Below, piece after piece: positions 336 to 33,640 of a DNA stretch of 36,935 nt (within the stretch, counting starts at the first letter, position 1; each line of letters opens with the position of its first letter). The translations under genes and the position numbers were made by a program. Location of the stretch: NCBI GenBank assembly GCA_018985235.1, contig JADGIG010000032.1:1-36935 (forward strand). Direction: 5' to 3'. This DNA is from Sanchytrium tribonematis. Its lineage: Eukaryota. The notes under the pieces are model-generated. The model had not been told where the DNA came from. It made no database searches and was given only the letters and a program-made list of their open reading frames with translations.

Positions 336-2505
336 TTAAAACTCCCAGTCTTTATCTACAGTTAGGGCCCATTTAAATTTTTCTCTGAGCGTTTTATTCA
401 ACATCTTCTCGATTGGAACATCATGGGTTTTGCACCAAGCAACTGTTATTCTAGGATCAATGTAGTTTTGCTTGGAAGTACCGAGGGCGGTCGTTTTACC
501 TTCATCTTTATCAACAATGGCTGTTTCATACTGTTCAAGTCGTGCAGTAAGTCGCTCATACTCCTTTAACAGACCATCTACAGTTTTACTCTTTTTAGGT
601 GCATTTTTCTTTTCCAAAAATTCATCCCATGAAATTTGTTCTTCCCCATTTTCTTTTCTCTTTTCTGAATCTTTTTCAAATTGCTTTTTGAGCTTCGCGG
701 CATTATTTTCTGCTTCAATTTCCAGATAGTCGGCAATCCACTCATCTGTTATTTCTTTTTCCTGATTAGATGTGTCTGGTAATTTGATTGTAGCACCACT
801 TTCGTAAATTTTTTCACGACATACAATTCTTTGATAAATAACAGCCAGGATTTTATCTCTCATTTTCTTCATCTGTCCATCGTGACCTTTGCTCACGGAT
901 TTCTGGTGATTGCATAATATGGCAACTTGCCGATTAGATCTATTAAATGCAAGCACTTTCTCACCCAAATTAGCATTTTTCGGGGTGCTTTTCAGCTCAA
1001 CTTGGAAGGTATGCGAAGCATTATAAGTACGAAATACTTTTGCAGTAAGACCTTTCATCAGACCATTCAAGTGCTTATTCAAGGAAGTAGTCTAAGTGAA
1101 TAAATTATACAGATAGCTTATCAAATAAATCTTGACCTTCGTCTTTGTCTTTCTTCAATTTTTTCAAATTTTCAAATACAATGTTTGGAACAGGAACCTC
1201 GTTGTGATATCTAATTGAGTCTTTACCTAAAAAGTCAAACACAATTACATTAGAGGGTTTAAAACTGACATGTTCCACCCTCAAAGAGCAGCATCCCACT
1301 GTGTCAGCCTCTTCGTCACCTTTTTCATTTCCAGCTCTTAATGCTAGTTTATCAATTAAGTACAAGGCAGTTGCTCTCTGCATGATTTCTAAATCTGTGC
1401 TTTTCAGATCTTGAGTGTAATCAATCCTGATCTTTTCAATAAATTTTCCAAGCTCTCTAGCTTTTTCAAATTTTTTTACGTCGCTTTGAGATTTCCACAT
1501 CGACCCATGCGATAGGAATACATACTTAAAATTATTATTCACATTTTCTTTCCACATTGCGAGCCAAGTCACATTTGGATTATGCACCACTTCCTTCCAT
1601 GGAAGATTGTAAGGATTTTTTGGTATTGGTGCGTCTTTAGCTATGTTTATAGTAACATCATTAGGCATCAGTCGCTTCTTTAATTTTCCAGTTTTGGGGT
1701 GTTTGCCTCTCCCTCTAAAGAGACCTGGCGGCTCAAGCCTAAAGTTACCAATTTTCTCCTTTCTTCCATCAATAATTGCTTTGCCATATTTCTCCTCGAT
1801 CTTTAATTTGTCTTCTTTGATAACCAATTTTTCTTCTTTAGTCATATTTTTTCTCTGGGTTTTGAGCTCTTCCAAATGTTGATGTATCAAGGTAAAATCA
1901 CATTTCTCAAATTCCCGGATAGGATAAGTATTTTCACAAGCATTTAAAACTTGCATGAAGTCATCGAAAAAATTTTTGCAAAATGTTGCATTTTGATGAT
2001 AGTCGGTATTGATGATTGCTGCAAAAAAGGTTGCCACTTCTTCTGCTTTCGGTTCAAGATGAACTTCTTCGCCATTGTAGATCAACGGAATTCCATGAGG
2101 TATATATTCGGGAGCAAAATACACACCTTGGTGTTCAAGCGTTTGCCACTTGACTTCCCCATCATCCAACAGTTGATCTATATCCACATCGCTCTGTTCC
2201 AAATCATCTTCTGTAGATTTTTGAGAAGATTTTCTGGGCTTTTTCAAATCAGCAACTTTTTTTGCTGGAATAGAGCCATTAGCTTTCTTTTCTATTTTTT
2301 TCTTTTTGCTTTTGGATTTAGATCGCTTATTAATTGCAATAGAATCAGAGTCGTCAGATTCCTCTTGGTAGGAATTTTTCGGCGCTTTCCGCTTCCTAGG
2401 TTTTGGCAAATCTTTGATCATTATTTCATCTGATTCAGCGTCTGAAGCTGGATTGGATCTCTCTTTGAGTTCTTTTAATTTCTTGAAATTTATGTCTGTT
2501 GCCAT
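336..2505 (-). CDS. TOP1: DNA topoisomerase I (type IB), 716 aa; exons 2505-1111 and 1091-336
   Basis: Motifs EPPGLFRGRG, LRAGNEK, DFLGKDSIRY, AKVFRTYNAS, LCNHQ and catalytic SKQNYIDPR. Removing the 19-nt intron gives DKLS|TTSLNKHL. Confidence 0.97.
1092..1110 (-). other. 19-nt spliceosomal intron in TOP1
   Basis: GTATAATTTATTCACTTAG; removal fuses the two TOP1 ORFs in frame. Confidence 0.93.
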
Positions 2506-2547
2506 TTTGTTACAAAAATTAAAAACTAACTAAAAAATTATTTATTT

Positions 2548-4553
2548 CTAATCTGGGTAGCTAGAAAGAGGATAACCTTGATCATAACGGCTATCATTTC
2601 TTCTCATTTTTAGTCTGTTATAGCGAGTTCTAATTCGAGGAATTGTACATCGTAAACAACCAATAAACATAAACAAAATGAGCAATAATAAAGCTATACC
2701 TAAATAAGGTTGGTCTTGAAAGTATGATATCAGCTGGTCGAAAATATTTTTGTACGCACAAGAACCATCTTTACAAAAGCCATTATATCCGCAACTTGTG
2801 CCGTCGATAAAATTACCAGTGAGCTGGACGCAAGCATTATAACTATTGGAATAACAGGTCAATTCACAGCTATTTTTAAGATCAGGACATGCCCCAGTCA
2901 TTCCAGATTTGCTACCACGAGCTTTGCATTGAATGTCCCTGCTAGTACAGAAGCCGCTTGCGCATTGCGCACTTACTCCATCTACCGCGCAAACTGTTCC
3001 GTCATCTTTATGAGTATCTGGAGGGCAATCGCCTGTATTTCCTTCACAAGTTTCTTCAAAGTCACAGTCTGGGTTGATGGCTTTTCGACAAGTACTGCCT
3101 TTTGATTTAAACTGACAATTATTGCAGCACAACTGGTTTTTGTCAGAACATTTGGCTCCATTTTTCAATTTACAATCCTTTGTGCAACAAGAATCTTTAT
3201 CGCATTGGTCTCCACAATCGCATTCTTCACCATCTTCTTTGATACCATTACCACAAACTTTGCCTTGAATAAGAGGTTTGCTGTTCGGTGGAAGAAGACA
3301 TTTGCCGTTGCTAGCTAAATTATTGCATATGTCTTTAATACTACAGGGAGAGAAATCATTCGACTTAATAGAAGCTGTTGGATTCATAATAAATTGACCA
3401 TTACAATCACAATTATCTGAACAAGGGCAACAACCTGAATTTGAAGCACCATTTGAGCAATCTAGTTTTGTACAGTCATGAACAGCTCCAAAATTATGTC
3501 CTATTTCGTGAGCGATGACTTGGAAACTGTCTCTGGAAGCCGCAGAGCTGACCCCGGCCCCGGATACTTGCTGCAATTTACCATCGACCTTTTGACTAAC
3601 CAATTCTGTCTCACAAACCTGATTCAGCCAAGCAACTCCAACCGTCGATCCGCTTGGACATGTCGTCACTATATAAGAATTATATTACCTAGATGCCATA
3701 GTCCAGCATCATTGCCACCATTAGTGGCCCGCCAAGACGAGAAATCTGACAATCTTTGAGTTATATCGTAATTGTCACTACAATCCTGATTCCACGTCGA
3801 GCTATCGGTTCCCGGACCGCATTCCATTTTTATATTGACTTTGAACAATCCCAGGCCTACATTAAATGTTCTTTCGTATATAGAGGAGGCCTGCGCAAAA
3901 TTTGAAATTAATTGCTGAACAATTTGACTTTGATCATTATCCAAAAGTCTGGCGTAAGTGCAATCAGTACTTGCGCCTAAATACAAGACTTTTTTATCTT
4001 GAGGACACCCTTGGGGGACATCCCTTTTACTTAATCTCAAAAAATACGGTTTTTTGCCTTGAATTATTTTGTTGTAAGGTAAATTGTGAGAGTTACAGCT
4101 CGGTGCTCCACTCAAATCAACAAGTTCTTCTTCTTTATATGAGATAAACTCAAATTTTTGTGGAGGATAAACATCATCCGATTTTCTGCTTCTGAGATAA
4201 ACAGATCTTTGCTTAATAATAAATGTTCCCTCTGTTGTAAGAATTCGACCTTCGTAAATTAAATTAGTTTGAGTTAATCGACCAACACCAATCTGTAAAT
4301 TTTGGAAAAGAACATCAACGTCGTAAACTTTAAATGTATTTTTGTGCAGTGCAGTTCTATTTAGATATTCAAATTGGATAATGGGATGAAAATTAATTGG
4401 CGTGAGCTTTAAATCGAATGTTTTGTTGTCTAATTTTAAATGTATCAAGGTATCATCCGAATGCAAACCTGTAAATTCTGCCCTGTTGATATTCCGAATT
4501 CCATCTAAAACCAATTGAGAGCCCAGGATAACATGCAAAAAAAGAAGCTGCAT
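2548..4553 (-). CDS. Fungal-type ADAM (disintegrin and metalloprotease), 661 aa; exons 4553-3689 and 3668-2548
   Basis: Hydrophobic N-terminus, prodomain, HEIGHNFGAVHD zinc motif, Met-turn FIMNP, disintegrin CGNGIKEDGEECDCG, Cys-rich region and C-terminal TM helix. Splicing gives GLWHL-VTTCPSG. Confidence 0.92.
3669..3688 (-). other. 20-nt spliceosomal intron in ADAM gene
   Basis: GTAATATAATTCTTATATAG; removal restores the frame inside the metalloprotease domain. Confidence 0.9.
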
Positions 4554-4666
4554 CAATTTTTCTCCTGTGTAAGCAATCAATTTAAAATGCAATTTCGATC
4601 ACAACTTGATTGGTTAAGAAATTGAAACCAATTTCAAAATTACAAAAAATTTATTGACAACTAAAA

Positions 4667-5258
4667 TTAATCCTTTAGCAAAGGTAAGGAAAAAAAGCCA
4701 GAATCTGGGAATTCTTGATGGTGCATGTGTTCATGCATTTGAAATGATCTTGTTCTTTCTTTTTTAACTTTTTGATACAACTGAATTGCGACTTGTTTCG
4801 CATTATCATATACATTATTATTATACATTCTAACGAAGATGGGGCATCTCATGAGATGGTTTTTTAATACGTCTGGCCGTCCACCTATTTTTATAAGCTT
4901 TCCACAATAATCGCAAGGGTATGGTGGAGCGTGAACCTACATTAATTTAATCTACGTTTTTGAGATGTCTAAGGGCGGTGCTTTGATCACAAAATTGTTT
5001 TTTACAAACGGGACAAACTGGGTCACCGCTGATTAAAGCGTTTCGTTTTTTCTTCTGGATAGGTTTTACTAAAGGTGGAAGGGGTAACTGAAATGGCGGA
5101 AGGGGTTGAAATTCCTCGAACCCGCAATATAGATTTAGTTTAATATCCATTTCTTCAAGATCGTGAGAGAGCATTCTTTTTGTTTCAACTTCGGTCAATG
5201 ACGCGAACGTCTGGTTTTGAAAGCCAAGATTTAAACGTGGAATGTAGACGGCATTCAT
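4667..5258 (-). CDS. Zinc-finger protein (C2H2 finger followed by a C2HC finger), 190 aa; exons 5258-4956 and 4936-4667
   Basis: Spliced product reads CPVCKKQFCDQSTALRHLKN|VHAPPYPCDYCGKLIKIGGRPDVLKNHLMRC. The second His of finger 1 appears only after splicing. Confidence 0.8.
4937..4955 (-). other. 19-nt spliceosomal intron in zinc-finger gene
   Basis: GTAGATTAAATTAATGTAG; joins ORFs 4947-5258 and 4667-4852 and completes the zinc finger. Confidence 0.88.
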
Positions 5259-5368
5259 TAAGTATTACTGGTAATAGAAGCATAAAAGTCTAAAGGTATA
5301 AAACAGTCGCTGGCTCATTCTAAAGGTCATGGCATTTTGACTTTACGTATTTATTCATTATAGAGACT

Positions 5369-6040
5369 TCATCCAATAACAAGCTTACCTTCATCAGTAA
5401 ATTGATGAGGAGGAATTTCCAGATTAAGAGGAGCCGGACCTTTTCGAATTCTGCCGCTGATGTCATAGTGACTACCGTGGCAGGGACAGTACCAGCCACC
5501 ATAGTCTCCAGAATTGCCTATTGGCACGCAACCTAAATGAGTGCAAACTCCTAGCATCACAAGCCATTCGGGATTTGTAGCACGGTCTTCGTCCTGTTCA
5601 GGATCTCGCAGAGTAGATATATTGACAGCTTTTGCTTCTTCAATTTCGCCCTGAGTTCGATGTCTGATAAAAATTGGCTTTCCTCTCCATTTAATCACAA
5701 TGTTCGTAGCTTCTGGAATTGCAGCTAAGTCGACTTCTACTTTGGCTAAAGCGAGAACATCAGCAGAAGCACTTAAATTTCCTAGAAAATCATGAACTGT
5801 ATTCTTCGCAGCAACAGTAGCCAACGCACCTGCGGAACCGACCATCGCATAAGCTAATTTGGAATTACCCTCAGTTCCTTCTTGATGATCAAAGGTTGGA
5901 GGAGCAGTATAATATCTCTTTTGAATAAAAGATTTGGGTGTAGGTGTAAATTGAGAGGAAGATTTAGTAGAGGTGCTTTTCATCATGGAAATTTTGCTTT
6001 TCACATTAGTTCTCCCAATTGATGTGAAGCTCTTCAACAT
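5369..6040 (-). CDS. RIP1: Cytochrome bc1 Rieske iron-sulfur subunit, mitochondrial
   Basis: Rieske motifs CTHLGC and [33 protein letters not shown]; Ser/Lys-rich presequence. Confidence 0.97.
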
Positions 6041-6073
6041 CTTGAATCAAGGAGATTTTTCCAAGAATTTATT

Positions 6074-6463
6074 TTATAAATTTTTACAAGCTGCCATGGA
6101 GATCATGCAATTACTAAAATCAAAAGGAACAGAAAGCATATTGCTTAAGTATGAGTTGTCTGGACAAAATTCGATAACTTGGCCTTTGATGTGAATTTTT
6201 GATTGATCAGATTCATAGACTATTGCTATGTTTGCGGTTTTCTCATTGATTCCAAAATATTCTAACGAACGTTTCACGCTCTTGAAAGGAGATAGGTAAT
6301 GTAGCAAATTATTAGAGTTGTTGTCTTTAATTTTGTTGTATTGGGCAATGTGAATATTTTTAAGACTTGGAATTGATGACATATTAAATATCGAATAGCC
6401 TTTGTTGCAGTACTGTAATAAATATGCTGGATCTTCGTTTAGTTTATAAAATTCTATTTGCAT
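6074..6463 (-). CDS. CGI121: Probable KEOPS subunit Cgi121/TPRKB (divergent)
   Basis: LLHYLSPFKSVKRSLEYFGI resembles the conserved Cgi121 segment (I-x-x-x-L-S-P...S-L-x-x-F-G-I). The size and the C-terminal MAACKNL fit. Confidence 0.65.
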   Translation of the reverse strand: MQIEFYKLNEDPAYLLQYCNKGYSIFNMSSIPSLKNIHIAQYNKIKDNNSNNLLHYLSPFKSVKRSLEYFGINEKTANIAIVYESDQSKIHIKGQVIEFCPDNSYLSNMLSVPFDFSNCMISMAACKNL

Positions 6464-6493
6464 TAAAATTTACACAACTTCTCCAAGTATCAA

Positions 6494-7916
6494 ATGCTTG
6501 ACATTTTGATTCTAAAGCAATCAAATGAATTGGAATTACTGAAAAAAAGTGAAAAGAGCCGCAACTCAAAGTTGAGTATTGATGAGATAGTTAAGCTCGA
6601 CGACGAATACAGAGCAACTAAATACGAAATGGACAATACAAATCGGAAATTCAATGAAATTTGCAAAGAAATGGGTAATTTATACAAAAAAAAAGATAAA
6701 TCAAATGAGGAAACTAAAAAAATTGAAGTTTTGAAATCAGAAAAGTTATTGATCGAAAATAACAAAAAGCAATTGATCCAATCTCAACAAACTAAATTAG
6801 ATAATTTATTGAAAGTATGGAAGAGCGTCGGAAATCTTGTTCATCCGAGTGTAAAAGTGTCAAACGATGAATCTGATAATGAAATTATCCGCAAGTGGGA
6901 TCCGCATTTAGAGCAAGTTCCAGATTCTAATATCCTTAAGCCTAAAACTCCACTTTCTCACCACCAAATTTTGGATTTGATCGGTGGATACTCTCCAGAT
7001 CAAGGCGTCAAGGTAGCAGGCCACCGTGGATATTTTCTGACTGGCGTAGGATGTAAACTATGGAGGGCATTAAGTAATTATGGTATTGACTTTTTAGAAG
7101 AACGAGAATACAGCCAAGTTTATACTCCGTTTTACATGAAAAAAGAAGTTATGGCGAGGACTGCCCAGTTGTCACAATTTGACGAAGAATTGTACAAAAT
7201 GGTAGGCGAAGAAGAAGCGTACCTGATTGCAACATCCGAGCAGCCATTATCCGCTTACCACATGAATGAATGGATAGAGCCTTCGAAACTGCCAATAAAG
7301 TATGCTGGATATTCGACTTGCTTCAGAAAAGAGGCAGGGTCTCATGGCAAAGATACTTGGGGAATATTTAGAATTCATCAGTTTGAAAAAATTGAACAGT
7401 TTGTATTAACTTCTCCTGAAAAGAGTTGGGAAATGCATGAATCGATGCTATCTGCGGCGGAAGACTTTTATCAAAGCGTAAACTTATTTTATTTAGTTGA
7501 ATGTTTCCTACAGAGTTGTCTCTATTGTTTCTGGTGCTTTAAACAATGCTGCTGCAAAAAAATACGACCTGGAGGCCTGGTTTCCCTTTCAGAACGAATA
7601 TAAAGAGCTAGTTTCATGTTCGAATTGTACAGACTATCAGTCTCGAGATTTGGAAATCCGTTACGGAACATCGGGTAAAGGAAAAGGTAATGAGTCTACA
7701 GAATCCGATGAAAAGAAATATGTGCATTTATTGAATTCGACTCTTTGTGCAGTCCAGAGAGCTTTGTGCTGCATTTTGGAAACATATCAGACAGATGAAG
7801 GCGTTGTTGTACCGAAAGTCCTACGAAATTATGTTGGTAAAGATTTTTTACCATTTGTTAAAAGTAAGGAAGAAATTTCAAAAGTTAATGCTAAGATTAA
7901 AAAAGGATCAAAGTAA
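6494..7916 (+). CDS. SES1: Cytosolic seryl-tRNA synthetase, 467 aa; exons 6494-7477 and 7497-7916
   Basis: Begins MLDI; motifs LIATSEQP, CFRKEAGSHGKDTWGIFRIHQFEKIEQF, ELVSCSNCTDYQSR. Splicing gives FYQS|LNVSYRVV. Confidence 0.97.
7478..7496 (+). other. 19-nt spliceosomal intron in SerRS
   Basis: GTAAACTTATTTTATTTAG; removal repairs the frame switch between the two SerRS ORFs. Confidence 0.94.
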
Positions 7917-7921
7917 ATATT

Positions 7922-8365: not shown

Positions 8366-8444
8366 CTCAAATTTATTTTGAAAAAAGGGCCACTTTTTGG
8401 CTTTTTCATCGTGTTTTCATTTTCAATTTTGTAACAAAAATTAG

Positions 8445-8642
8445 ATGAACTTTGAATCTATCAAACCTTCGAGATTAAATATTAAAAAAAAGAATCAATT
8501 ACAGAAATCCAATAAGACAAAAGCTCAAAAAAATGCGGAAGAGGCTATGAGAACGAGAATAAAACCAGAATTTGCAACACATTCAGAAAAAATACGGAAA
8601 TTGAATAAGCAACTGGAAAAGGTAGTAGACTCGTTTGACTAG
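8445..8642 (+). CDS. Small basic protein, FAM32A/DUF1754-like
   Basis: KTKAQKNAEEAMRTR...ATHSEKIRKLNKQL resembles the FAM32A core (T-x-A...TH-x-E-K/R...N-x-x-L). The family's usual C-terminal motif is absent. Confidence 0.5.
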   Translation: MNFESIKPSRLNIKKKNQLQKSNKTKAQKNAEEAMRTRIKPEFATHSEKIRKLNKQLEKVVDSFD

Positions 8643-8648: not shown

Positions 8649-11481
8649 TTATTCATTATCACTATCAATTGTAAGGCCTTTAGAGGGTCGCTTATAAATT
8701 TCTTTATCAGCAGCTATGTTGTCGGGCTGTTCAGGCTGCTTTTCCAAGTCATTCCTTTTCTTTCGTTTCCCCGATTTCGCTTTCTTCTTAATTTTATCAT
8801 CTTCTGAATTTGTTCTTTTTCTTGATTCCTCAGTGTATAACATCTCTTTCATTTTTTCTAAAAGTTGAACTCGCTCTTCCGAAAGCTCTTCCTGATCCTC
8901 TACCTTTTCAAATGTCATTTCTTTGACCTCTGTCATATCGGGCATGGTTGCTCTAGTTTTTTCTGACTTTAAAAAATGTTCATGTAAATTTCTTAGATTT
9001 TTGACGTCGTTTTCATAATCAAATAGTTTTCCAACTACTGAAGAAACATCAAGAAGTTGACGAAAGTGTTTATCTTCTATTGCCAATTTTATAGATTTCA
9101 AGCCAATTTCTGCCAGCTTTATTTTTTCATCACTGACAAATGCAGCATTCTTTAAAAAAAACTGTGATGTTTCAGACAATAATTTGTAAAAGTCAATAAA
9201 ATTTCGAAGGTGTGAAGGATTTTGAAAAGCGCATCTCTGGGAATATAATAAAGCCGATGAAAGCTCACTCTCATTGGATGTTATCAATGATGATTTGAAG
9301 TAAGCCCTTGAAATGTAAAATAGTAATTTTCCAAAAGTATTATCAGCGATTTCTAAATGCGCCAACGCAATTAGATACTCTTGAACTGCTTCCGTATATC
9401 TTGCTTCTTGCATTAGCAAATGAGCGTAGTTTGTTTGAATCATTATAATTTGTGGATGCGAAGCTCGAAGAATATTTAATTGTTGCAAGGCTTCGTGATT
9501 TTTACCTAATTTGTGCAACAATATGATAAAGGCATTTGCTACATACGGATTTTTTGGACTCAGTTGAAAAGCCACTTTAAACCATTTCAAAGCATTTTCG
9601 CACATTTTTTTAATTTCATTTTCATTAACTTTACCTAATTTGTTTTGCTTGCTTTCAAGAATATTAAGAAAGCAATTGCCCATATACAAAATTACCAAAA
9701 CACTAGATCTATCAATTTTGTTTAATTCGCTAAACAGAATCGCGGAAGAGTCGGGTTCATGCTTATTTGCCCAATATGCCAAATAAAATCTCGCCATAAA
9801 GTTTTCTGGATTTTCTTTGATTAGAGCCTCCAATTCGTCTTTTGGATTTTCACCGTGAATAGCAAGATAAAACGACAATCTTCGAATTACTAGATTAATC
9901 AAAATAACCATGTTCATGTAAGTCGCTGTCGAGCAAATCCTTATATTTCGAATATGCAGATTTTGGATCAGACACCTCTAGAAGTCGTAATTGATTAAAG
10001 CGCAATATGTTTAGCATATTACCTTGATGCTTCAATTGATTTAAAATAGATTCGATTTGGCCTAAAATGCATTTACAGTCACTATATCGCTTTTGATCAA
10101 ATAACAAAGCAGAATAGACTGTTAGATCTTTGACAACCTGCAAATTTGAACCATCTGCGTGAAAATATTGCAGAGCTTCTGGTTTGTTACTCATTCGATA
10201 AATTCGACCTTGTAAGCGAAAAAGGTCATTTTCGGTGAAGTACTTTTCACAATTTTCAATTTTAAATAGTATGTCCATTGATTTTTGAGCATGATTTAAG
10301 TGATTATAAAACTCTATTAAATGATTTCTTTTCTCGTCAGTTTTTTTCAGATCAAGCAGTTCAAATTTTCGCAACCTTAAAGAAATCTCGACATGCGACC
10401 AAGCTTTTAAAAATAAAATACTGATTGATAAAGCCTCATTGTTACTTGAAAGTAAGTTTTCAACTTTCTTTATCCTATTTAAAAACAATTCTGGAGATTT
10501 GTCATCCAAAAGGCAAAGCTGTGCGTGGTAGACAACAGATGGTTCGTCTCTAGTTTCACTTGCCATAAATTTATACATTTTTCTCGCCTTATCGAATTGT
10601 TTTTCAAAGTGAAATATCAAACCTAGACCCTTAGCAGCTAAGCATTTTATCTTCTTTGTTTGAGAATGGTCGTAAACAAACTGGAAAAGAATTTTGGACT
10701 TTTCGTAGGAACGTTCTAAGAAATAAATTTCTGCCAATTTCGAGATCATTCCCATATCGGGTCTAAGTGAATACTCTAATGCTTTTTTTAAGCACACAAT
10801 TCCCAATTTATCACTTTTTTTTAATAAAATTACACTAAGTAAATGCAAAGCTCTCTCATTTTTAGAATTGGTTGCCAAAATGTTGTGGCAAGCTAATTCC
10901 GCTTCTTTGTTCAGGCCCAAAGCTTCATAGCAAACAGCAATCTGTATCTTAATAGGCAAACCATCTATCTCCAAGTGATACGCCCATCTGAGAATTTTTT
11001 GAAATGCATCCAGCGCTTTTTCGTATAATTCCAATTGAACTAAACATAATCCGCGTATAAATTCAACTGAAGGCAAAAGGCTGACCAAATTTTGTTGATA
11101 AGCCTTTTTATATACTGAAAGGCAACCTGATAAACAGGTTTTGTAATCTTGCTGTAAATAGTAGAGTAAGACTTTCAAAAATTCAGATTGACAGGCCAAC
11201 ATATCGATTTTTTCAATTTCATCAATTGTGGCATTTAGCTGTTGCTTCTCCGTATTGCAAAAATGAGTTATACCTTTTAATAATTGACAAACCAATGTTA
11301 ATGGAAATTGCAAGTTACTTTCAAATTCAGTAGGTTGTTGCAATTCATTCATTAATAATCGAAAATGATGGTCATCAAGATCATGCGTACACAAAATTGG
11401 AAGAAGTTTAGAATAATGATCTACCACATCAGGTTTAGCAACTTCTAAAGTTTTCCCATTGTTCAGATTAAACTTTAACAT
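8649..11481 (-). CDS. Large TPR-repeat protein, probably divergent Paf1-complex subunit Ctr9, about 937 aa; exons 11481-9909 and 9889-8649
   Basis: TPR-like helices throughout (FKVAFQLSPKNPYVANA, TNYAHLLM) and a charged C-terminal tail ending TIDSDNE, as in Ctr9. Start placed at ATG 11481 because the longer ORF overlaps the transporter stop. Confidence 0.6.
9890..9908 (-). other. 19-nt spliceosomal intron in TPR gene (GTT donor)
   Basis: GTTATTTTGATTAATCTAG; joins the two ORFs in frame (LHEH-VIRRLSF) and matches the TNAYNTAG 3' consensus. Confidence 0.85.
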
Positions 11482-13541: not shown

Positions 13542-15174
13542 TTATTGATGGTCAACGCCTTCGCCGTGATGAATAACATCGTCAATTTTCAATACCATCT
13601 TTACCAGTTGAGTAGCTAATAGGAATTGTGATCGTTTTGAGGTATAAGGATCAAAAACCTTATTTTTTAATTTAGCTGGCTCTCCAGTGAAGCAATCTAC
13701 ACCGACTCCACCAAAGTCTTGCGTGTTTTTCAATTTCCTTTGCTCGGCAATTACTCTTGTAACAAGTTGCATGCCATCATGTCCAGCATTGTCAGCCAAT
13801 GCAGTTGGAACAGCGAGTAATGCTTTTGAAAATGCACGGCAGGATAATTCCACCACATCGTCATGTCTCTCTGCAACATCCTCTACTGCGATCGCACATG
13901 CAATATCTGAAGCGCCTGCTCCGCAGACTATTTCTGGAGAGGAAATTAACGTTCTAACTACACACAATGCATCATGTAAAGACCTCTTTGTCTCCTCGAT
14001 TAACTAAATTAATTTAAACTACCATTTCATTGCCACCTCGGACTAATATTGTGCAAGTTTTTGGATTAGCACAATCTTCAATTACTAACATTTTGCTGTC
14101 GGTTGTTCCAAACCCAATTGTTTTGACTAATCCAGCTTTCCCTAACTTTTCTTTCGATAATTCGCTAAATCTAGGAACAATTCTGCCATGCGTCGCAATA
14201 GCCAATCGTTCTAAATCTGGACCCCCCACCCATCTGACAGCAGGTAGCTTTTGCTGATAAAGTAAATGATTCGCCTCATCGTCAAATCCCCACTGGCACA
14301 TAACTACGTTTGCTCCACTATCTTTACACTGCTGCACCATTTTGGTGAAAATCTGTTGTTCATATTCTGACAATTCTTTGTATGCTTTTGCATCTTTAAC
14401 ATCAAGTTTATGTTTAGTTTTTGGCTTGGGTGGTTCAAAGGGACAAGTGAGAATAGCAATTTTAGCATCTTTTACAGACTCTGGCATTTGAGGGTGTGAA
14501 AAGGATTTGTCAATAATAACACCCTGAATTAACTGAGTTTCTTCTAGTGATCCGCCGAGTTTACTTGTTACGTGAACTAGTTCTAAGTTGACTCTCCCAT
14601 TTTCATTTACAGATTGAACTGCATCAACCGCCATTTTCGCGAATTTATCATGAAATTTTGCGACAATTTTTGAGGAAAGACTAGTTTTGGCAGCTTGATA
14701 TAGCATGTCTGTATCAGCTTTCGATTTGATTTGATCTAAAGTTTTTATAGCTTCTTGGCAAGCAATATCGAATCCTTTAGCAATTCTAATTGGATGTATG
14801 CCCAAATTGATGAGGTGCTCTGCTTCTTTGAGTAGAGCTCCTGCTAAAACAACAACACTTGTTGTACCATCCCCGCATTCATTGTCTTGGGATAAAGATA
14901 ACTCGACCAAGAGCCTTGCTATCTGATGATTTACGTTCATTTCTTGCAAGATAGTAGCCCCATCATTAGTTACCATAACATCTCCATCTTGGCCAACAAG
15001 AATTTTATCCAGTCCCATTGGACCCAAGCTGGTTTTTATAATCTGTGTTAAAGAAGTAGCAGCAAGGATATGAGACTTGATTGCATCAGTTCCGCTAATT
15101 CTAGCTTTCTTTTCCTGTTCTCTGACTATTAGAAATGGTCTTCCCATTTCATCAACCGCTGTCGTGTATTGCAT
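13542..15174 (-). CDS. CCT5: Chaperonin CCT/TRiC epsilon subunit, 537 aa; exons 15174-14023 and 14003-13542
   Basis: [48 protein letters not shown]. Splicing gives [23 protein letters not shown]. Confidence 0.97.
14004..14022 (-). other. 19-nt spliceosomal intron in CCT5
   Basis: GTAGTTTAAATTAATTTAG; removal restores conserved chaperonin sequence. Confidence 0.94.
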
Positions 15175-15628: not shown

Positions 15629-16808
15629 ATGACCACCAAGGAAGAAGCTTTAGAAAAATATCGCGCTGCAGTTGAACAGCACACTGCATTAAATGAACAA
15701 TTGAAACAGTTGCGAAATAAGATTAAAGAAGGGCAGGCTGCGTTTGATCAGTCCGAAAAAGAGTTAGCATCGATTCAGAGTGTTGGGCAAATGATTGGTG
15801 AGGTTTTGAAGGTTTTGACTGAAGAGCATTATATTGTAAAATCGTCATCCGGACCTCGATATGTTGTTGGAAAGCGCCCAAAACTTCGTGCAGTAACTCA
15901 GGGCATGCGTGTCAGCTTAGACATGACTACTCTTACAATTATGAGAATATTGCCTCGGGAAGTTGATCCCATGGTTTATAACATGACTATGGAGAGCCCT
16001 GGCAATATTAACTTTGATGCTATTGGGGGCTTATCGGAACAAATTAGATCACTAAGAGAAGTTATTGAATTACCATTAGTTAATCCAGAATTATTTTTAA
16101 GAATCGGCATAAAACCACCAAAAGGTGTTTTATTGTATGGACCTCCTGGAACTGGTAAAACTTTGCTTGCTAGAGCAGTAGCTGCTACATTAGAAAGTAA
16201 TTTCATTAAAGTAGTTAGTTCTGCTATCGTGGACAAATATATTGGAGAATCTGGAAGAATTATTAGAGAAATGTTTGGTTATGCCAAAGATCACGAGCCT
16301 TGCATCATTTTTATGGACGAAATTGATGCGATTGGGGGAAGACGATTTAGCGAGGGTACTTCGGCCGACAGAGAAATCCAAAGAACCCTAATGGAGCTGC
16401 TACATCAGATGGACGGATTTGATGTCTTGGGAAAAACTAAGATTATCATGGCAACAAACAGACCGGATACTCTTGATCCTGCATGTAATCTTTATTTACT
16501 TAGTACTTCGCCCTGGAAGATTGGATCGTAAAATTGAGATTCCTTTGCCAAATGAACAAGCGAGAGGTGATATTCTAAAAATTCATTCCAATCCTATGGC
16601 TAAAAACGGAGAAATTGATTACGACCCAGTTGTCAAATTGAGTGATGGATTCAATGGTGCTGATCTTAGAAATGTGTGTACTGAGGCCGGAATGTTTGCT
16701 ATCCGAGAGGACCGAGATTACGTAATTCAGGATGATTTTATGAAGGCAGTTAGAAAAGTGGGCGACTCAAAGAAGCTTGAATCAAAGCTTGATTACAAGA
16801 AAGTTTAA
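15629..16808 (+). CDS. RPT4: 26S proteasome AAA-ATPase Rpt4, 386 aa; exons 15629-16484 and 16504-16808
   Basis: [62 protein letters not shown]. Splicing gives [14 protein letters not shown]. Confidence 0.97.
16485..16503 (+). other. 19-nt spliceosomal intron in RPT4
   Basis: GTAATCTTTATTTACTTAG; removal restores the invariant DPALLRPGR motif. Confidence 0.95.
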
Positions 16809-16865: not shown

Positions 16866-17835
16866 ATGTCGTCCTTCGCTCAACAAACTTTATCTGGGTT
16901 CCAACCACTCTTTACACCGCTTACCATGATAATGACTTGGATGGTGTCGTCTGTTGTATTTATAATTTCTGGAGTTTTGTTTGTATTATATTCACCAGCT
17001 CAAATTATAATTGACTACACGACATGTACTGGTAAATCAGTAAGACCAGACTATGTGAAAGATGATTCAACGGATGTTAAGCTTTGCAGACTAAAATTTA
17101 CTTTGGACAGAGATTATAATGATGTTTTGATTTATTATCAACTAAATAATTTTTACCAGAATCATAGAAAGTACGTTAAATCCAAAAATGATGATCAATT
17201 ATTTGGTACAGCCGTATCTGAGTCCAGTTTGTCCACTTGTGATCCCTTGATTACTGGTAAAAATGGCAAACCTATATATCCTTGTGGACTAATAGCGAAT
17301 TCGATGTTCGATGATCAAATTGCATTTTTGAATGACGGCAACAGCAATGTAACTTTGATATCTACAGGAATATCTTGGAGCAGCGACAAGGATAGATACG
17401 GAAAGACAAAATACTCTGCTGCAGATGTTGTTCCACCACCAAATTGGAGCTATAAATACAAAGATGGACTTTACACTGACGACACTATTCCAAATTTGCA
17501 GGAATATGAAGATCTTCAGGTTTGGATGAGAGTGGCCCCTTTTTCTAATTTTAATAAGCTTTGGAGGCGGGCCAGTTCTCTCAAGAAGGGAGATTATGTT
17601 TTAGGAGTATATGATCACTTTGATATTGTTTCATTTGGAGGTCAAAAAAAAGTTTTAATAACGACATCTTCTGTTTTAGGTGATTCTACAAATCTTGGAT
17701 ACATGTACGTCGGTACTGGGGTTATTTGCCTGATACTTGGGGTTACATTTTTAATAAAGCACAGAATGCACCCAAGGTATTACATACTAATTTAGAAAAC
17801 TCGGAGATACCTCTTACTTAAGTTGGAATAAATAA
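16866..17835 (+). CDS. CDC50/LEM3-family P4-ATPase flippase beta subunit, 316 aa; exons 16866-17776 and 17796-17835
   Basis: YYQLNNFYQNHRKYVKS, PCGLIANSMF, VWMRVA and two TM helices. The spliced C-terminus HPRKLGDTSYLSWNK matches the fungal Cdc50 tail. Confidence 0.93.
17777..17795 (+). other. 19-nt spliceosomal intron in CDC50-family gene
   Basis: GTATTACATACTAATTTAG; removal reveals the conserved PRKLGD..YLSWN terminus. Confidence 0.92.
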
Positions 17836-21711: not shown

Positions 21712-23522
21712 TTATTCTAAAACGACACCTAGGTTCTTTTCCGCATCTTTGTCACTTTCATTTTCACTTTCAATGCTCATGTTTATTGACGATCCGTTGC
21801 CCGATGCATCAATTTTAAAGGATTGTTGACTAGGCAAAGGAGATAAAATTGCTTTTTGAATTTGAGGGTTGGAACTATTTGCCCCCCTGCTACTCAAAGA
21901 AGTACTCAATCTTGGCTCTGAGGGATGTGGTGATCTCATGTGTAGTTCTGTCATGCTACCTCTTCTGGAAATGGCTTTTTTAAAATCAACCACCATATTT
22001 GAAAACGAGGAAGATAGCCTCCTTACGCCTCTTTTCAGCTTATCCATTATAGTAAATGCGTTTTCTACCTCATTTTGGGTAACTTCAATAACATCGTAAT
22101 TCGATGGACTGGTTTCGGCCAGCCACCTTGTAACTTGTTCCTCAGTCATCTCTTTTATTATCCATGGATGCACTTTGATCTCATCTAAAGTGATTCTTTT
22201 ATCCCAACGTTTTTCTAATAGTTTTTTAAGTAGATTTTTGCATTCTTCAGATCCGCCTGGTGGAAATTCAAGCTCCTGTTTGGGTATAATGTCAAGCAGT
22301 TCGTATTCATTTGCAGCAGTAAAAGGTACCTGGCCATAAATTAAACAGTATAGAGTAACACCTAATGCCCATATGTCAATACTTTTTGTAATATAAACTT
22401 TATATGAGGGGTCATCTATAAGAGGATGCGGTTCGTCGTCATACTTGATAGGGGTGTGGAGCTCGTCAGTTGCGACGCAAAGTTCGGGTGCAAAAAATGC
22501 GGGTGACCCAACAGTCTTTTCCAATTCTGGATCTTCCTCAATTTGTTTTCTAGGATTGTTTTGATCATGTTGGAGTTTAGGAGAAAAGTGAGAAACACCA
22601 AAATCTGTGATTTTGACGATAAGTTGTTTTTCATTATCTTCGTTCGTTTCATAGGTGTATAGCAAATTTGCAGGTTTTATATCTCTATGAATGACACCTT
22701 GGTAATGCAGATAATCTAGACCACTTATAACTTGTTTAATTATATATCTAGCCTGATCTTCACTTAAAACAGCAACATATTCAATAGATTCATCACTATC
22801 TGTACTAAAATGATCACCAACATAAAATTGAGACCCACTTTGCTGCTCACTCCAATTATACATTTCTCGATGAGGCTCCAAATGGCGAAAATCTTCGTTT
22901 TCCTCAGGATAAGGATTAGTATCTTGATCTGTCCAGAGCACTGGAGAATTCATAGAAAAATCTTCCTCGTCGCTAGAATCCGAAATGCTAAACGAATTGC
23001 TTCTAAAAATTGAATCAAAATCCTCCGGAGTAGCATTTGGATGTCCATTGGTTTGATGGCTAGATTTCCTACGCCATTTTACATGACCGTAGCAGTATTC
23101 CATAATTAAATAAACATTTTGGTCAAATGGATCTTCAATAACTTCCAAAAGTCGCACAACATTTGGGTGATTTAATTTTTTCATAATGGCTATTTCTTTT
23201 TTAATTAAATTCAAATATTGATGCCCATTGGAAAAATTTCCTTTTTTTGTTTTGGGTATGACTTTTATCGCAACAAAGAGATTGTCTGAGTGAGAAGTTG
23301 ATTTTCCCATACAGACCTTTCCATGAACGCCTTTACCGATAGTTTTTATAACTAAATTATTTTGATAATACCAATAAATTGATTAATTTGTTTATAACCA
23401 AGAGGTGAAGTTCCTTTCACCAATGCATTAGTATATTTGACTGGAGGAGTTACACTGCTGACGCTCCCATGTCTAGATATTTCGACTTCATCTTCTTTTT
23501 TTGGTTTTAAGAGTCCTTTCAT
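21712..23522 (-). CDS. CaMKK-family Ser/Thr kinase (Sak1/Tos3/Ssp1-like), 596 aa; exons 23522-23372 and 23351-21712
   Basis: Splicing gives KQINQFI-VIKTIGKGVHGKV (Gly loop). Also VAIK, EIAIMKKL.HPNVV.L.EVIEDP, HRDIKPANLL, DFGVS, TVGSPAFFAPE, DIWALGVTLY. Confidence 0.92.
23352..23371 (-). other. 20-nt spliceosomal intron in kinase gene
   Basis: GTATTATCAAAATAATTTAG; links an ATG-initiated 151-nt exon to the Gly-loop frame. Confidence 0.88.
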
Positions 23523-25327: not shown

Positions 25328-26615
25328 TTAGTGTTGCGTCCACTGAATTGTCTTTAAATCGATTCCTTCTTCGACTGCCATTTCCCACAAGGGACTCATT
25401 TCTCTTAATCTGTTGACTTGCATAACTATTATTTGAATTAGTTCATCTACTTCTTCCTCTGTTGTAAATCGACCTATTCCAAATCTAATCGAAGAGTGTG
25501 CCATATCGTCGTCCGTTCCTAAGGCACGGAGAACATACGATGGTTCCTAAATTAAAAAGGGTTACCAAAGAGGCGGAAGTGCATGCAGAGCCACTTGAGA
25601 GAGCATGGCCATTAAGCGCCATTAATAGTGATTCACCTTCGACGTATCCAAAACTCAAATTCACACATCCAGGATATGTATGATTCAAATCCCCATTTCT
25701 TGTAACATGAGAAAGTTTGGAAGTTATTCCTTGAACGAGCCTATTACTTAAAGTTTCAATTCTTTTAGATTCTTCTGCCATGTGATCAATCGCGAGTTGG
25801 CAAGCTTCACCGAAGCCGACAGTCAGTGGGGTCGGGACAGTACCACTTCGTAACCCTCTTTCTTGGCCACCACCATGTATTAAGGGTTCCAGTCGCACTC
25901 GTGGTCTTCTTCTGACGTACAAAGCACCAATCCCTTTCGGGCCATATATTTTATGACCAGATAGAGATAGCGCAGCAATATTCCAAGATTTGACGTCTAT
26001 AGGTATTTTTCCAAGGGCTTGAGCAGCATCAGTATGAAGTAAAACTTTTGTATCCTTGCATAGCTGTCCAATTTCCTTCATAGGTTGAATTACACCAATT
26101 TCATTATTGACCGTCATAATGCTAACCATGATAGTGCTTGGACGAATCGCATTTTCAAGATCCTTCAATTTAACAATACCTCCCATATCAACTGGCAAAT
26201 AAGTAACCTCGAATCCTTGAGTCTGTAAATATCGACATGAATCCAGAACACATTTATGCTCAGTCTGAGTTGTAATGATATGATTTTTAGACTCAGATTT
26301 GTAAAATCTAGAAATGCCTTTAAGTGCAGTATTATTTGCCTCAGTGGCACCACTTGTAAATACGATTTCTTTAGGATCCGCATTTATAAGTTTGGCAATT
26401 TGACTTCGAGCTAATTCAACTGCTTTTTCGCTCTCCCAGCCAAAAGCATGTGTTCTGCTATGTGGATTGCCGAACATGACATCAAAATATGGCAACATTC
26501 TCTGAACAACCCTTGGATCTGTTGGTGTAGTAGCCTGGTAATCAAAGTAAACCGGAACGCCATTTCTTTTTACCAATTTTGGCACGAAATGTATCGATCT
26601 ACAAAAATGTGTCAT
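25328..26615 (-). CDS. NFS1: Mitochondrial cysteine desulfurase, 422 aa; exons 26615-25566 and 25546-25328
   Basis: [34 protein letters not shown]. Splicing gives [21 protein letters not shown]...SPLWEM...IQWTQH. Confidence 0.97.
25547..25565 (-). other. 19-nt spliceosomal intron in NFS1
   Basis: GTAACCCTTTTTAATTTAG; removal restores SASLEPSYVL and the conserved C-terminus. Confidence 0.95.
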
Positions 26616-27105: not shown

Positions 27106-28339
27106 TTACTTTTGAATTTTTAAAAATGAATCTCCTAGATCATTAAGAAGATCTTGAGTATCTTCAACCCCACAGCTTAAGCGGATAAATCCATCATTAA
27201 TTCCTAAGGTTGCTCTATCTTTAGGATCGACGCTAGCATGTGTCATACTAGCTGGATGTTCAGCAAGTGACTCTACTCCTCCTAAGCTTTCAGCACATAC
27301 AAACACACTCAAGCTATCTAAAAAAGTAACACAGTCTTTGTAAGATCCTTTTAAAACAAAAGATACCATACCACCAAAAAGTTGAACGTTACCATAATGA
27401 TGGCCCATTTGTTTTTTTGCAACAGCATGTTGTGGATGCGACTCCAATCCAGGATAAATTACCTTATCAACAAGTGGGTGAGTTTCCAAATATTTCGCAA
27501 CAGCCAAACCATTCTTGGAATGTTGCTGCATTCTCAAGTGTAATGTTTTAATACCTCTCATAACTAGGTAACAATCAAATGGAGAGGGAACATTTCCAAG
27601 GCAATTTTGCATAAATTTCATTTCCTCATAAATCGCTTCGTCATTAGTGATGCAAATTCCCATAACAGCATCAGAGTGTCCATTAATGTACTTTGTGATT
27701 GAATGTACAACAATATCTGCTCCTAAGTCCAGAGGTTGTTGCAAAATTGGGGAGCAAAACGTATTATCCACAACAACAAGGGTGGTAGGGCTTATCGACT
27801 TTACAATTTTTACCGTCTCCGCAATATCCACCACCATTACTATATTATATAAAACTACATGTTGGGTTTGTAGGTGTTTCAATCCATACTAAAGGTACAT
27901 TTTTTAAAGCCTTCAATTTGTCCTTGAGAGTATCAGGCTTAGTCATATCACAAAAGCTCACATTCTTGTATAGCTTTGTAAAATAACGATACGTTCCCCC
28001 GTAAACGTCAGACATACATAATATGTGAGATTCTGGAGCGCGTTTGAAGCAGATTTCAGCCAACAATGCAGTACAGGCAGAACCACTTGACAAAGCTACT
28101 CCAAATTTTCCCTTCTCTAACTTTGCTAGTCCATCTTCGAGCAAATGGCGTGAAGGGTTTCCACTTCTTCCATATTCAAAATTAATCTTAGAAACCTTGC
28201 TTTGTCTAGTTGGAGAAGGCTCCCTTCGAGTTTTAAAAGTTGTGCTTAATGAGATCGGTGCAATAACTGCATTGGTCAATTCATCGATTTCATCAACATG
28301 AACACTTAGAGTACCCAAATTTTTTTGCTCTCTTCCCAT
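27106..28339 (-). CDS. CYS3: Cystathionine gamma-lyase (Cys/Met metabolism PLP enzyme), 404 aa; exons 28339-27859 and 27839-27106
   Basis: PISLSTTF, EYGRSGNP, DVYGGT, spliced WIETPTNPT-LMVVDI, VVDNTF, HSITKYINGHSD, AESLGGVESL. Confidence 0.9.
27840..27858 (-). other. 19-nt spliceosomal intron in cystathionine gamma-lyase
   Basis: GTAGTTTTATATAATATAG; removal restores ETPTNPTL..VDI. Confidence 0.94.
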
Positions 28340-30666: not shown

Positions 30667-30708
30667 ATTTCTCTCGTTTTGTGCTATTTTCTGAAACAAT
30701 TTAAATTT

Positions 30709-33640
30709 ATGCATCGGTTTTTAATTGCAATTTATGAGTTTGCAGGCGATTCTTCGCAAGATGAAATGTCCATAAAAGAAAACGATTTGATGATAGCAAT
30801 CTCTGAAGATGATCAGTGGTTATTAGTGATTTTACTTTCAAAATTAATAGATAACTTCCAAGTTTTAAAATTGGTTGGAAATTTAGATGAGAAACTCGAT
30901 AAAATGAGATCGATAGGTGGCTTGGTCCCTAAAAATTACGTTCAAGATTATGTTGGCGAGGTGGGTTACGCATTACACGATTACTCTGCACAAGATGAAG
31001 AAGAACATTCGTTGACAGAAGGTGAACAAATTCAACTGTATGATGCAAAAAAAGATGACTGGATTTTTGCTATGAAAGGCGGAAATATCGGATTAATACC
31101 TCGTTCATACGTGGAGAAAGGTGAAATTGAAGTAATCAAACAGCCAAGTTCTGAAAAATTTGAGGATGACGACAATATATTCATGACTGTCATGGATACT
31201 GCGCCCATGAATATCGCGTACCACTCAGCTAGTCACATTCCTACTAGTACATCATCTCGAAAACATGGCACACAGGGAGCTTTGGGGGTTAGCAACACCA
31301 GTGTTTTGTTTGTTAATCTAAAGGTTCTAACTGTATACAAAAATTTCAATGTAATGTCTTGTAAAGTCGTTAAAATGGAAAAGAAGATCTTGCAAATTGA
31401 AGATATGTTTTTTAAATTAGAATCTTCAAAAGACGTTGAGGAGTTTCTCGATTCCTACAACAAAGCAAAAATAGGAAAATCTGTGGAAAGAGACTTGGTG
31501 AAAGAAACGATGCAAAATGGGCCAAAATCAAAATCCGATAATGAGGGTATAAGAAAAGAGAATATTAAGGTTCTTCATGATACTGTTCAAAAAACTGCAT
31601 CAGGTACTCCCGCCATAAAGAAACCTGCACCTGTTGTTGAGCCTAAGTACGGAAAAGTTTTATATGATTTTGTTGCTGAAGAAATTGAAGAAATTTCAGT
31701 CTCAAATGGTCAATTTCTACTTTTGTTGAAAGAAGATCAAGATTGGATTGAAGCCCAATTACTTGATGAGGCGTTAGAGCCGACTGGCAAAAAGGGATGG
31801 GTACCACTAAATTATGTAAATTTTGAATCGAAAGAAAATCTAAGACGTCTATCTCGTAAAATGCCATCTGCTCCTATTCAGCAAGTACCAGCACTCCCTG
31901 AAAGAGATCAGATGATCCAAGAGCCAAAACTCGATCCGGTACAATTTCGCTTGCCAACTCCTACTAAACCTATCAAGGACAAAGAAGCAGTTGTATTCTC
32001 TGAGCCACCACAATTGCCGGCTAGAGAAAAACCTCCATTGCCAGACAGAATCGAAACTCCGAAATCCGCAGAAAAAGAGGACGTAGTCATGCAAAAGCCT
32101 GAAATGCCTCCGCGGCCATTAGACCGACCGAAAATGCCTCCAAGACCAAATACTTCGCAAAAGGCTGCCCCTCCTAAAGCAAACAGTCTTGCCCTTGAGC
32201 AGGTTGACGCAATCAAGGAGCTTCCCAATAGCGAAAATTTGAGAGTTTGGAAAGATAAATCAGGGGGGTTTTCTGTACGTGCAGAATTCCTTGGCTTATT
32301 TGATGATAAAGTACATTTGTTTAAAACAAACGGTGTTAAAATTGGTGTCCCGTTAGAAAAATTAAGCGACGAAGATCGACAATTTATCTCGAAAAAATTA
32401 AATGACAACACAATTGTTGAGACAAATAGCACAGCGTTTCAAGGATTTGATTGGCTTCCTTGGTTTATGAGCAATTGTTCATTAGACGAAAAAACAGCGC
32501 GAAAATACTCTGAAATATTTGTTAAGGAGCGAATCGATTTGTCTTTACTAAGAGAAATGACAAAAGAAGATTTGAGATCGTTGGGTTTTGCTCAAGGTGA
32601 CGTTATCAGAATATTGAAAGCGACGAATTCAGAACCAAGCAATGAAATCAAAGATCAAGTGATGGAGAAAGAGAAAGAAGTGAATGTTCAGCGAATTGAT
32701 GAGTATTTTGCTGATAAGATGAAAAAAATGGGCTCGGCTATTTCAAATACGATGACTTCTGATAAAAAATCAGATTTCAATAACCGAAATGAATACCCTT
32801 TAGGTTCCAACAATTTGAGCGATAAAGATAAATTTGGCAGCTTGAAGGAATCAAATACATCAAGGCAACAAATATATTTTAATTCTGTTAAAGAAAGTAA
32901 ACCATCACATCGAGAACCAATTAATAATGTAGATTATTCTCAAGATTCTATCATCACCAAAGTAAGAGAAGATCCCAAACCAATTATTGTTGAGAGGAAA
33001 AAAGAAATTCCAAAATCACAGACGTACAGCGAAGGCTTCGCTAATCCTCCGACTAGGCAAAACCGGGCTCATTCAGGAAGCGAAAAATCATCGATACTAC
33101 CCACAGATAGTGCTTCTCAAATCCACTCTCCGACAAATATTCAGTCAAATTATTCGAATTACGCTACTAGGCCTAGCCAATCGCTTTATTACAATCCGGC
33201 TTTGCAAAATATGCAAAGGCAGCAGCAAATGCGCCCCTCTCAACCCTTGGTGGCTCAACCCATTCAATCATTTCAACAATCGCAACCACCAAATTCATAC
33301 CAACAACCTGTTTTTCAAATGCGTCCAAATATTAACCAAATCCAACAAGGATACCAAATGCAGCAACAATTTCAGCATCAAAATCCTCAAATGTATAATC
33401 AATTGCAGCAAGTGCCTCAGCAAATGTCAAATGCTCAGTTTGTTCAACAATATCAGAATAATAGACCAGGCCCTCAAGCTTTCCCTCAACAATTTCAGCC
33501 AAGTACTTAAATCTAATTTAGCTGCGAACGATCTATTCGGAAGACTGCAGGGCAACCAACCTACTTATGGAACTCAAGACAAATATTCAGCCATGCAAAA
33601 CCAGAACGTTTTTGACAACCGGTTCCAAAAAAGAAGATGA
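30709..33640 (+). CDS. SLA1: Endocytic adaptor Sla1, 970 aa; exons 30709-33502 and 33522-33640
   Basis: Three SH3 domains, Pro-rich linker, SHD1 (RVWKDKSGGFSVRAEFLG..VHLFKTNGVKIGVPLEKLS), SAM-like SHD2 (FDWLPWF..LGFAQGDVIRI) and Gln-rich tail. Confidence 0.92.
33503..33521 (+). other. 19-nt spliceosomal intron near the SLA1 3' end
   Basis: GTACTTAAATCTAATTTAG matches the consensus. Removal extends the CDS to TGA 33640, 8 nt from the convergent NRPS stop. Confidence 0.82.

Follow-up and report, generated by a model that had tools for sequence, protein, structure and literature searches.

Apparent spliceosomal introns of 19-20 nucleotides with a constant branch-type adenine in the sanchytrid fungus Sanchytrium tribonematis

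Known ultrashort introns and the window set

Introns of about 20 nucleotides (nt) are known from few lineages. Those of Stentor coeruleus measure 15-16 nt, with the branch A at position 10 of 15 or 11 of 16, that is, at -6 counted from the 3' end (PMC9505925), chlorarachniophyte nucleomorphs have introns of 18-23 nt, most commonly 19 nt in Bigelowiella natans (PMC4494063), and Mikrocytos mackini has introns of 16-17 nt, only 224 in all, served by 17-19 spliceosomal proteins (PMC10245619). Encephalitozoon cuniculi introns range from 22 to 76 nt (PMC3629993), and median lengths in myxobolid myxozoans and dicyemids are 22-27 nt, as given in a 2026 paper on ultra-short introns, where the exceptions listed as known are ciliates, Microsporidia and dicyemids (PMC13644364). 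In the present study we analyzed a 36,935-nt stretch of contig JADGIG010000032.1 (assembly GCA_018985235.1) from Sanchytrium tribonematis, hereafter the window, in which 12 genes are interrupted by GT-AG segments of 19 or 20 nt (table 1). At a probability of roughly 0.9, we take these inserts to be spliceosomal introns of the major (U2-type) class in a sanchytrid fungus, probably derived by shrinkage from ancestral introns of ordinary size.

All 12 segments begin with GT and end with AG on the coding strand (four forward, eight reverse), ten being 19 nt and two 20 nt long, and removal of each leaves a stop-free reading frame in all 12 genes. Phases are 0 in five cases, 1 in six and 2 in one, and the GC content of the intron interiors is 11% versus 36.5% for coding DNA. 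The coordinates, ends, lengths and frame repair proposed in a sequence-only reading of the window were thus all reproduced. Its statement that no longer introns occur also held, the 33 gene models (31 whole, two cut at the window ends) covering 93.7% of the window as coding sequence, leaving intergenic gaps of 42 nt at the median, and showing no further frame break. Additional introns that are stop-free and a multiple of three in length may exist in poorly conserved genes. Twelve of the 33 genes carry an intron, one each; the absence of genes with two introns has P = 0.028 under random placement per codon, in this small sample, and nine of the 12 introns, again a small sample, fall 3' of the midpoint of their coding region, unlike the 5' intron bias of intron-poor genomes. 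Reads of a DNA run (X1), possibly the source of the window, cover positions 1-19000 with neither joint nor indel at the eight introns there. At 8841-10380 and 17394-19000 secondary contigs of X1 show scattered differences at lower depth, representing alleles, repeats or a second strain.

Aligned at their 3' ends, all 12 introns share T at positions -8 and -3, A at -6 and a pyrimidine at -5, giving the pattern T-N-A-Y-N-T-A-G, which the sequence-only reading had not mentioned. The A remains at -6 in both 20-nt introns as in the 19-nt ones, so the putative branch spacing appears to be set from the 3' end. Shuffling within introns produced a single invariant column in 0.5% of 200,000 trials and never two, compared with three observed, of which the T at -3 may owe something to the search having favored YAG ends. 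The 5' end reads GTA in 11 of 12 introns, and G is absent from +5 throughout; a longer 5' consensus that includes this G is typical of major-class introns without being required. There is no room within these introns for a polypyrimidine tract.

The closest match is with Stentor, which shares GT-AG ends, AU-rich introns, a branch A, putative in the window, at -6 and a 5-nt tail (as described in PMC9505925), along with retention of most core spliceosome proteins while Slu7 and Prp18 are not found, in our case in the annotation of the sister species Amoeboradix gromovi discussed below. A reduced +5 G is common to the window, Stentor and the myxozoans. The window introns differ in being 3-4 nt longer and in their invariant T at -8, whereas the branch region described for Stentor has no strong consensus; they also belong to a fungus rather than a ciliate, a parasite with a compact genome, and number about 0.35 per kb of coding DNA. 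Nucleomorph introns, as reported in PMC4494063, resemble them in size band and mode, GT-AG ends, genome compactness and positions common to relatives, but reside in the relict nucleus of an endosymbiont, where genes have several introns each and no U4 was found, whereas the window is from a main fungal nucleus with one intron per interrupted gene. Mikrocytos is likewise a parasite with very narrow lengths and conserved intron sequence (PMC10245619), although extrapolation from the window gives roughly 3,600 introns for the genome and the sister species has a far fuller protein set. Microsporidia, also holomycotan parasites with very short GT-AG introns, form a separate lineage with few and longer introns, strict 5' and branch motifs, poor splicing and about 30 spliceosomal proteins (PMC3629993). 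The parasitic myxozoans and dicyemids share a 5' signal cut to GTa and retention of U2AF but have wider length ranges, and their putative branch A shifts away from the AG as the intron lengthens (PMC13644364), in contrast to the constant -6 of the window at both lengths. Our search of the open literature (PMC8371127, PMC10459994, PMC10406608 and PMC6349667, subscription journals lying outside its scope) returned no description of sanchytrid introns, and an earlier mention in print seems doubtful. In the sources covered the shortest fungal intron seen was the 22 nt of E. cuniculi, so that 19-20 nt would be below any fungal length found reported. The sanchytrid micro-introns apparently belong to a known kind while representing what seems to be a separate, not yet reported emergence within a fungal phylum; their fixed branch geometry matches that of Stentor.

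Junctions and splice signals

Junctions were assessed by continuity of Pfam profiles, by searching each exon separately against the PDB, and by alignment to homologues. Six of the 12 are residue-exact by homologues (TOP1, seryl-tRNA synthetase [SerRS], cystathionine gamma-lyase [CGL], RPT4, CCT5 and NFS1). The TOP1 exons match PF01028 at positions 2-132 and 133-222, and the numbering of 1nh3_A passes unbroken from 366 to 370. Those of SerRS match PF00587 at 8-98 and 97-179, with exon 1 ending at residue 329 of 3qne_A and residue 3 of exon 2 at 332, while those of CGL match PF01053 at 2-152 and 151-380, with exon 1 ending at residue 164 of 2nmp_A and residue 2 of exon 2 at 167, exact once the split codon is counted. 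CCT5 continues across PF00118 (1-347, then 348-488) and when spliced is 84% identical to A. gromovi P0003 with a single two-residue gap away from the junction; the site is continuous in 64 of 118 homologues and broken in one relative, 53 falling outside the pattern used. The RPT4 site is continuous in 119 of 119 homologues, and the spliced protein aligns gap-free over 382 residues at 92% identity with an uninterrupted relative, P0245. At the NFS1 junction CTSASLEPSY is present in 116 of 116 homologues, and the break recurs there in all three close relatives. Genes that cells need intact, such as those of the proteasome, chaperonin, tRNA synthetase and Fe-S classes, are thus among the interrupted ones.

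Support is approximate or at motif level for four junctions. In the ADAM-type metalloprotease, for which the PDB search gave no match, PF13688 is continuous to about two positions (4-98, then 97-196). The zinc-finger gene acquires the second histidine of a complete C-x2-C-x12-H-x4-H, the defining C2H2 motif, in its spliced form only. Removal of the CAMKK intron links the sole upstream exon with an ATG to the start of the kinase domain, at what we take to be a CAMKK motif, and the kinase stretch had no PDB match at the cut-off used. The last exon of CDC50 presumably matches the C-terminal motif of that family. Frame and splice signals are the evidence for the remaining two, SLA1 and a TPR-repeat gene that we guess to be CTR9-like. 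The TPR-gene intron has the lowest leave-one-out score of the set, and the homologue search for this gene gave its own piece and eight weak matches, none across the junction.

Table 1. Introns and other features of the window, followed by short introns in metagenome CCT5 loci (locus coordinates)
Feature	Position	Strand	Length (nt)	Phase	Evidence or remark
TOP1 intron	1092..1110	-	19	0	Exons 2505-1111 and 1091-336
ADAM-type metalloprotease intron	3669..3688	-	20	1	Pfam, approximate
C2H2 zinc-finger gene intron	4937..4955	-	19	0	Motif
SerRS intron	7478..7496	+	19	0	Pfam, PDB
TPR-repeat gene intron	9890..9908	-	19	1	Frame and splice signals
CCT5 intron	14004..14022	-	19	0	Pfam, site shared by relatives
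RPT4 intron	16485..16503	+	19	1	Homologue alignment
CDC50 intron	17777..17795	+	19	2	Frame, signals; last exon about 12 residues
CAMKK/Ssp1-like kinase intron	23352..23371	-	20	1	Frame, signals
NFS1 intron	25547..25565	-	19	0	Homologues, site shared by relatives
CGL intron	27840..27858	-	19	1	Pfam, PDB
SLA1 intron	33503..33521	+	19	1	Frame and splice signals; low-complexity C-terminus
IFT46, C-terminal part	2-322	+			Pfam
Small gap-filling reading frames, 64-65 residues	8445-8642, 19391-19585, 25125-25322	+			
IQ-motif coiled-coil protein	19734-20576	-			No Pfam match
tRNA-Thr(AGT)	24933-25005	+			Intronless
Partial reading frame, >1,094 residues	33649-36935	-			Condensation, adenylation, carrier and reductase domains; Lys2-like or NRPS-like
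L064 short introns	781-800, 1075-1094				
L066 short introns	3152-3171, 3446-3465				Same in L067-L070
L077 short introns	10387-10406, 11196-11217				Same in L079
L080 short introns	140-160, 435-456				

Each junction offers 44-121 alternative GT..AG pairs, and the intron listed is the shortest one with the branch motif in 10 of 12 cases. Variants of 16 nt at CCT5 and CGL were rejected, as they would add a residue missing from homologues. Membership of the minor (U12-type) class was also rejected, the consensus RTATCCT 5' motif and TCCTTAAC branch of that class being present in none of the 12 introns. A scan of the window for GT followed by the 3' pattern found 10 occurrences at a total length of 19 nt (mean 1.7 and maximum 7 in 200 simulated windows) and five at 20 nt (simulated mean 1.7, maximum 6); of the lengths scanned, 14 to 40 nt, 19 nt alone exceeded its simulated maximum. 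The motif scanned for was taken from these same introns, the 19-nt length was not. Further introns were sought with a weight-matrix and a motif scan, which returned in-frame candidates in RPT4, TDP1, ADAM and PTR2; the first is coding by alignment and the other three look coding. An 18-nt in-frame GT..AG with the motif at 13430-13447 (-), in an open reading frame (ORF) of 86 residues, is a possible hidden intron divisible by three, and a 24-nt GT..AG with a branch-type motif abuts the CCT5 start codon at 15175-15198 (-), either as a 5' untranslated region intron or by chance.

Host lineage, shared intron sites and spliceosome

The host of the window is a sanchytrid fungus (Sanchytriomycota), a member of a group of small fungi parasitic on algae. 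A. gromovi is the closest named relative for CCT5, RPT4 and NFS1 (80-86% identity), and trees place the window with A. gromovi and two further relatives on a long branch apart from other fungi, in accord with the fungal origin proposed from the sequence alone. Support for this grouping is 100/100 for NFS1 and 100 by the Shimodaira-Hasegawa-like approximate likelihood ratio test (SH-aLRT) in a quick CCT5 tree, based on 26 and 22 rows, respectively, hand-chosen from 120 matches each. The ORFs of the window are present in EukProt and differ from their A. gromovi counterparts, as fits S. tribonematis, the other of the two sanchytrid genomes described (PMC8371127). The sister group of sanchytrids has ordinary introns, so the direction of intron change can be polarized. 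Placement beside Blastocladiomycota, where sanchytrids have been positioned (PMC8371127), has support of only 50/4 in the same trees. In A. gromovi a single contig carries both CCT5 and RPT4 (records P0003 and P0242), and the record pairs P0002/P0244 and P0004/P0243 point to the same linkage in the two further relatives, making it likely that local gene order is conserved across the group.

Eleven proteins of relatives are broken at three of the window sites (six at RPT4, two at CCT5 and three at NFS1). Because ORFs called on genomic DNA continue into the intron, their read-through peptides record its length, which we decoded over a range of 10-60 nt. Seven of the 11 decode to a single length, 19 nt in P0243, P0122, P0246, P0004 and P0255 and 22 nt in P0121 and P0244, although the decodings of P0122 and P0004 use only 7 and 8 exon bases, and a final stop serving as the acceptor would also permit 27 and 51 nt for P0004 and P0255. 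P0002 gives 21 nt, only with its stop as acceptor. The other three proteins, two of them the A. gromovi ones, reach a stop within the intron, leaving the A. gromovi lengths undecodable. Six of the seven decoded relatives allow T at -8 and A at -6, and G at +5 is impossible in the read-through codons of nine of the 11. The proposal of a near fixed-length micro-intron system therefore gains from the lengths of 19-22 nt at the same sites in relatives. Two relatives' proteins are uninterrupted, A. gromovi CCT5 and P0245 RPT4, reflecting either intron loss or a transcript source.

We also scanned metagenomes with CCT5, obtaining 80 loci without any close relative (best segments 45-65%). Five have an intron at the exact window site, GT-AG in L030 (47 nt), L042 (63 nt), L051 (67 nt) and L072 (50 nt) and with only the donor in L011; 71 loci are continuous, many of them probably transcripts, two have an intron three codons earlier and two end short of the site. 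CTAAC/CTAAT-like elements occur in three of the four complete introns, and G is at +5 in four of five. Since the same site holds introns of 47-67 nt elsewhere, the simplest reading for this single site is that the CCT5 intron is likely an old one that shrank in sanchytrids. Together with the sanchytrid host and the shared sites, this supports the independent origin suggested earlier for the system. Unrelated metagenome CCT5 loci contain GT-AG introns of 20-22 nt (table 1), with A at -6 in seven of eight distinct ones; L064, L066 and L080 have in-frame stops resembling a ciliate code, and L077/L079 have almost none.

The spliceosome was inventoried by term search of Supplementary Data 1 of PMC8371127, in which the A. 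gromovi sheet has 3,755 rows. Annotated there are PRP8, BRR2, U2AF1, U2AF2, SNRNP40, SNU13, SUB2, U1-70K, SF3B1, PRP22, PRP17, PRP40, YJU2/CCDC94, U1A/U2B'', CWC25, ISY1 and the lariat debranching enzyme DBR1, and U1-70K and DBR1 are also among the 171 S. tribonematis rows listed. BBP/SF1 appears in the A. gromovi sheet as two adjacent ORFs, probably split by another micro-intron, and no separate match to PRP16 was confirmed in that sheet. Slu7, Prp18 and U1C were not found by name or identifier in this annotation, which covers about half of the proteins; with about half of the proteins unannotated and ORFs fragmented, their absence is weak evidence. An Rfam scan of the window gave one tRNA and no small nuclear RNA. 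The spliceosome table of Stentor likewise lacks Slu7 and Prp18 (PMC9505925), and purified yeast spliceosomes ligate exons without these factors at a branch-to-3' splice site distance of 7 nt, with about half the yield (PMC3683925). A loss of Slu7 and Prp18 in the sanchytrid lineage is suggested but speculative, as is altered U1/U6 pairing at +5. The modified spliceosome proposed in the sequence-only reading is a possibility, most core proteins being annotated in the sister species.

Proposed mechanism, rival explanations and consequences

It is possible to sketch how such introns would be spliced. The spliceosome would recognize the whole intron as a single short unit (intron definition), with U2 small nuclear RNA pairing to the T-N-A-Y element and bulging the A at -6. 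This A would attack the GT 13-14 nt upstream, producing a 14-15-nt lariat loop with a 5-nt tail, and the AG would dock at a fixed distance, making a polypyrimidine tract and scanning unneeded. Such fixed branch-to-AG geometry could render the second-step factors Slu7 and Prp18 dispensable, as with the yeast short-distance substrates, and length would likely be held at 19-22 nt, with deletion bias trimming longer introns and a steric limit preventing shorter ones. More tentatively, sanchytrid genomes may contain thousands of 19-22-nt introns with A at -6 and may have retained the rest of the spliceosome after losing Slu7, Prp18 and the pairing with a +5 G, a Stentor-like state reached independently; we consider this wider picture possible but short of probable.

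Several points weigh against these readings. Removal from RNA and the branch point are both deduced from the DNA, the data comprise 12 introns from 37 kb together with three sites of relatives, and the TPR-gene and SLA1 junctions are supported by frame and splice signals rather than at protein level. The 19-nt decoding of P0122 (7 exon bases) is incompatible with A at -6, and P0245 may come from a gene that lacks the intron instead of from a spliced RNA. The absence of Slu7, Prp18 and U1C comes from a half-coverage table of unspliced ORFs searched by name and identifier, and the Stentor table used for comparison (PMC9505925) is itself imperfect, with CDC40 missing yet PRP17 found.

The introns could be real but the window unrepresentative, genome-wide lengths being broad or splicing being weak as in microsporidia. 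In favor of this are the sample of only 37 kb and the lengths of 21-22 nt already seen in relatives, and in E. cuniculi 30 of 37 introns are spliced below 50% (PMC3629993). We regard it as improbable given that every intron of a window with 93.7% coding sequence and gaps of 42 nt at the median falls at 19-20 nt, that all seven decodable introns of relatives are 19 or 22 nt, and that the hosts are essential genes. Removal or skipping without a spliceosome, through an Ire1/tRNA-ligase route or ribosomal bypass, was considered because the segments are close in size to the unconventional HAC1 introns of fungi, which are about 20 nt long and bordered on both sides by CNG|CNG loops on stem-loops. 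Such a border occurs at neither end of any of the 12, folding is weak and inconsistent, terminal repeats are lacking, all 12 have GT-AG ends and a branch-type motif, and the CCT5 site holds an ordinary 47-67-nt intron elsewhere, making both routes very improbable. Least credible are assembly or amplification artefacts, or pseudogenes: run X1 does not provide independent confirmation if it is the source of the window, but 11 proteins from other genomes are broken at the same codons, the inserts share a motif, and spliced RPT4 matches P0245 without a gap. We therefore reject the Ire1-type, bypass, artefact and pseudogene readings and retain that of U2-type introns.

The interrupted genes are in pieces in public protein sets. 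For 11 of the 12, EukProt contains unspliced read-through products or single exons; the last is present as a fragment of 551 residues in a representative protein library. Of 18 window-derived sequences looked up in EukProt 14 were present; among the four absent, NFS1 and the TPR gene were found with another start codon and two are second exons. The source study predicted ORFs with TransDecoder on assembled contigs, and its main text contains "splic" 0 times and "intron" once, in a reference title (PMC8371127). The sequence-only reading had anticipated misannotation, which was found for all 12 genes, but attributed it to minimum-intron settings of gene finders; the likely cause is instead ORF calling on genomic contigs without a splicing model.

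Other features of the window include three small gap-filling ORFs, of which that at 19391-19585 is a putative PET191/COA5 and that at 25125-25322 a putative V-ATPase assembly membrane peptide. The large partial ORF at the end of the window is intron-free over 3.3 kb. The IQ-motif protein, which we guess to be IQCD/DRC10-like, and the IFT46 part are related to the flagellum, which is non-motile in this lineage. Sanchytrids are described as having lost IFT-A and several IFT-B proteins (PMC8371127).

Each new origin of fixed-length ultrasmall introns tests the floor on intron size. In human cells splicing fails when the donor-to-branch distance is below about 46-50 nt (PMC11291888), and in the window introns this distance would be 13-14 nt. 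The match with Stentor, in both the A at -6 and the lack of detected Slu7 and Prp18, turns the yeast in vitro result (PMC3683925) into a comparative prediction and, if true, would indicate a repeated rule tying fixed branch-AG spacing to loss of these two factors. Because intron-bearing genes are in pieces, sanchytrid gene counts, "lineage-specific" proteins and gene-loss lists may need rechecking, and if the introns prove general the published gene sets of the phylum, with the gene-loss lists drawn from them, would need re-annotation.

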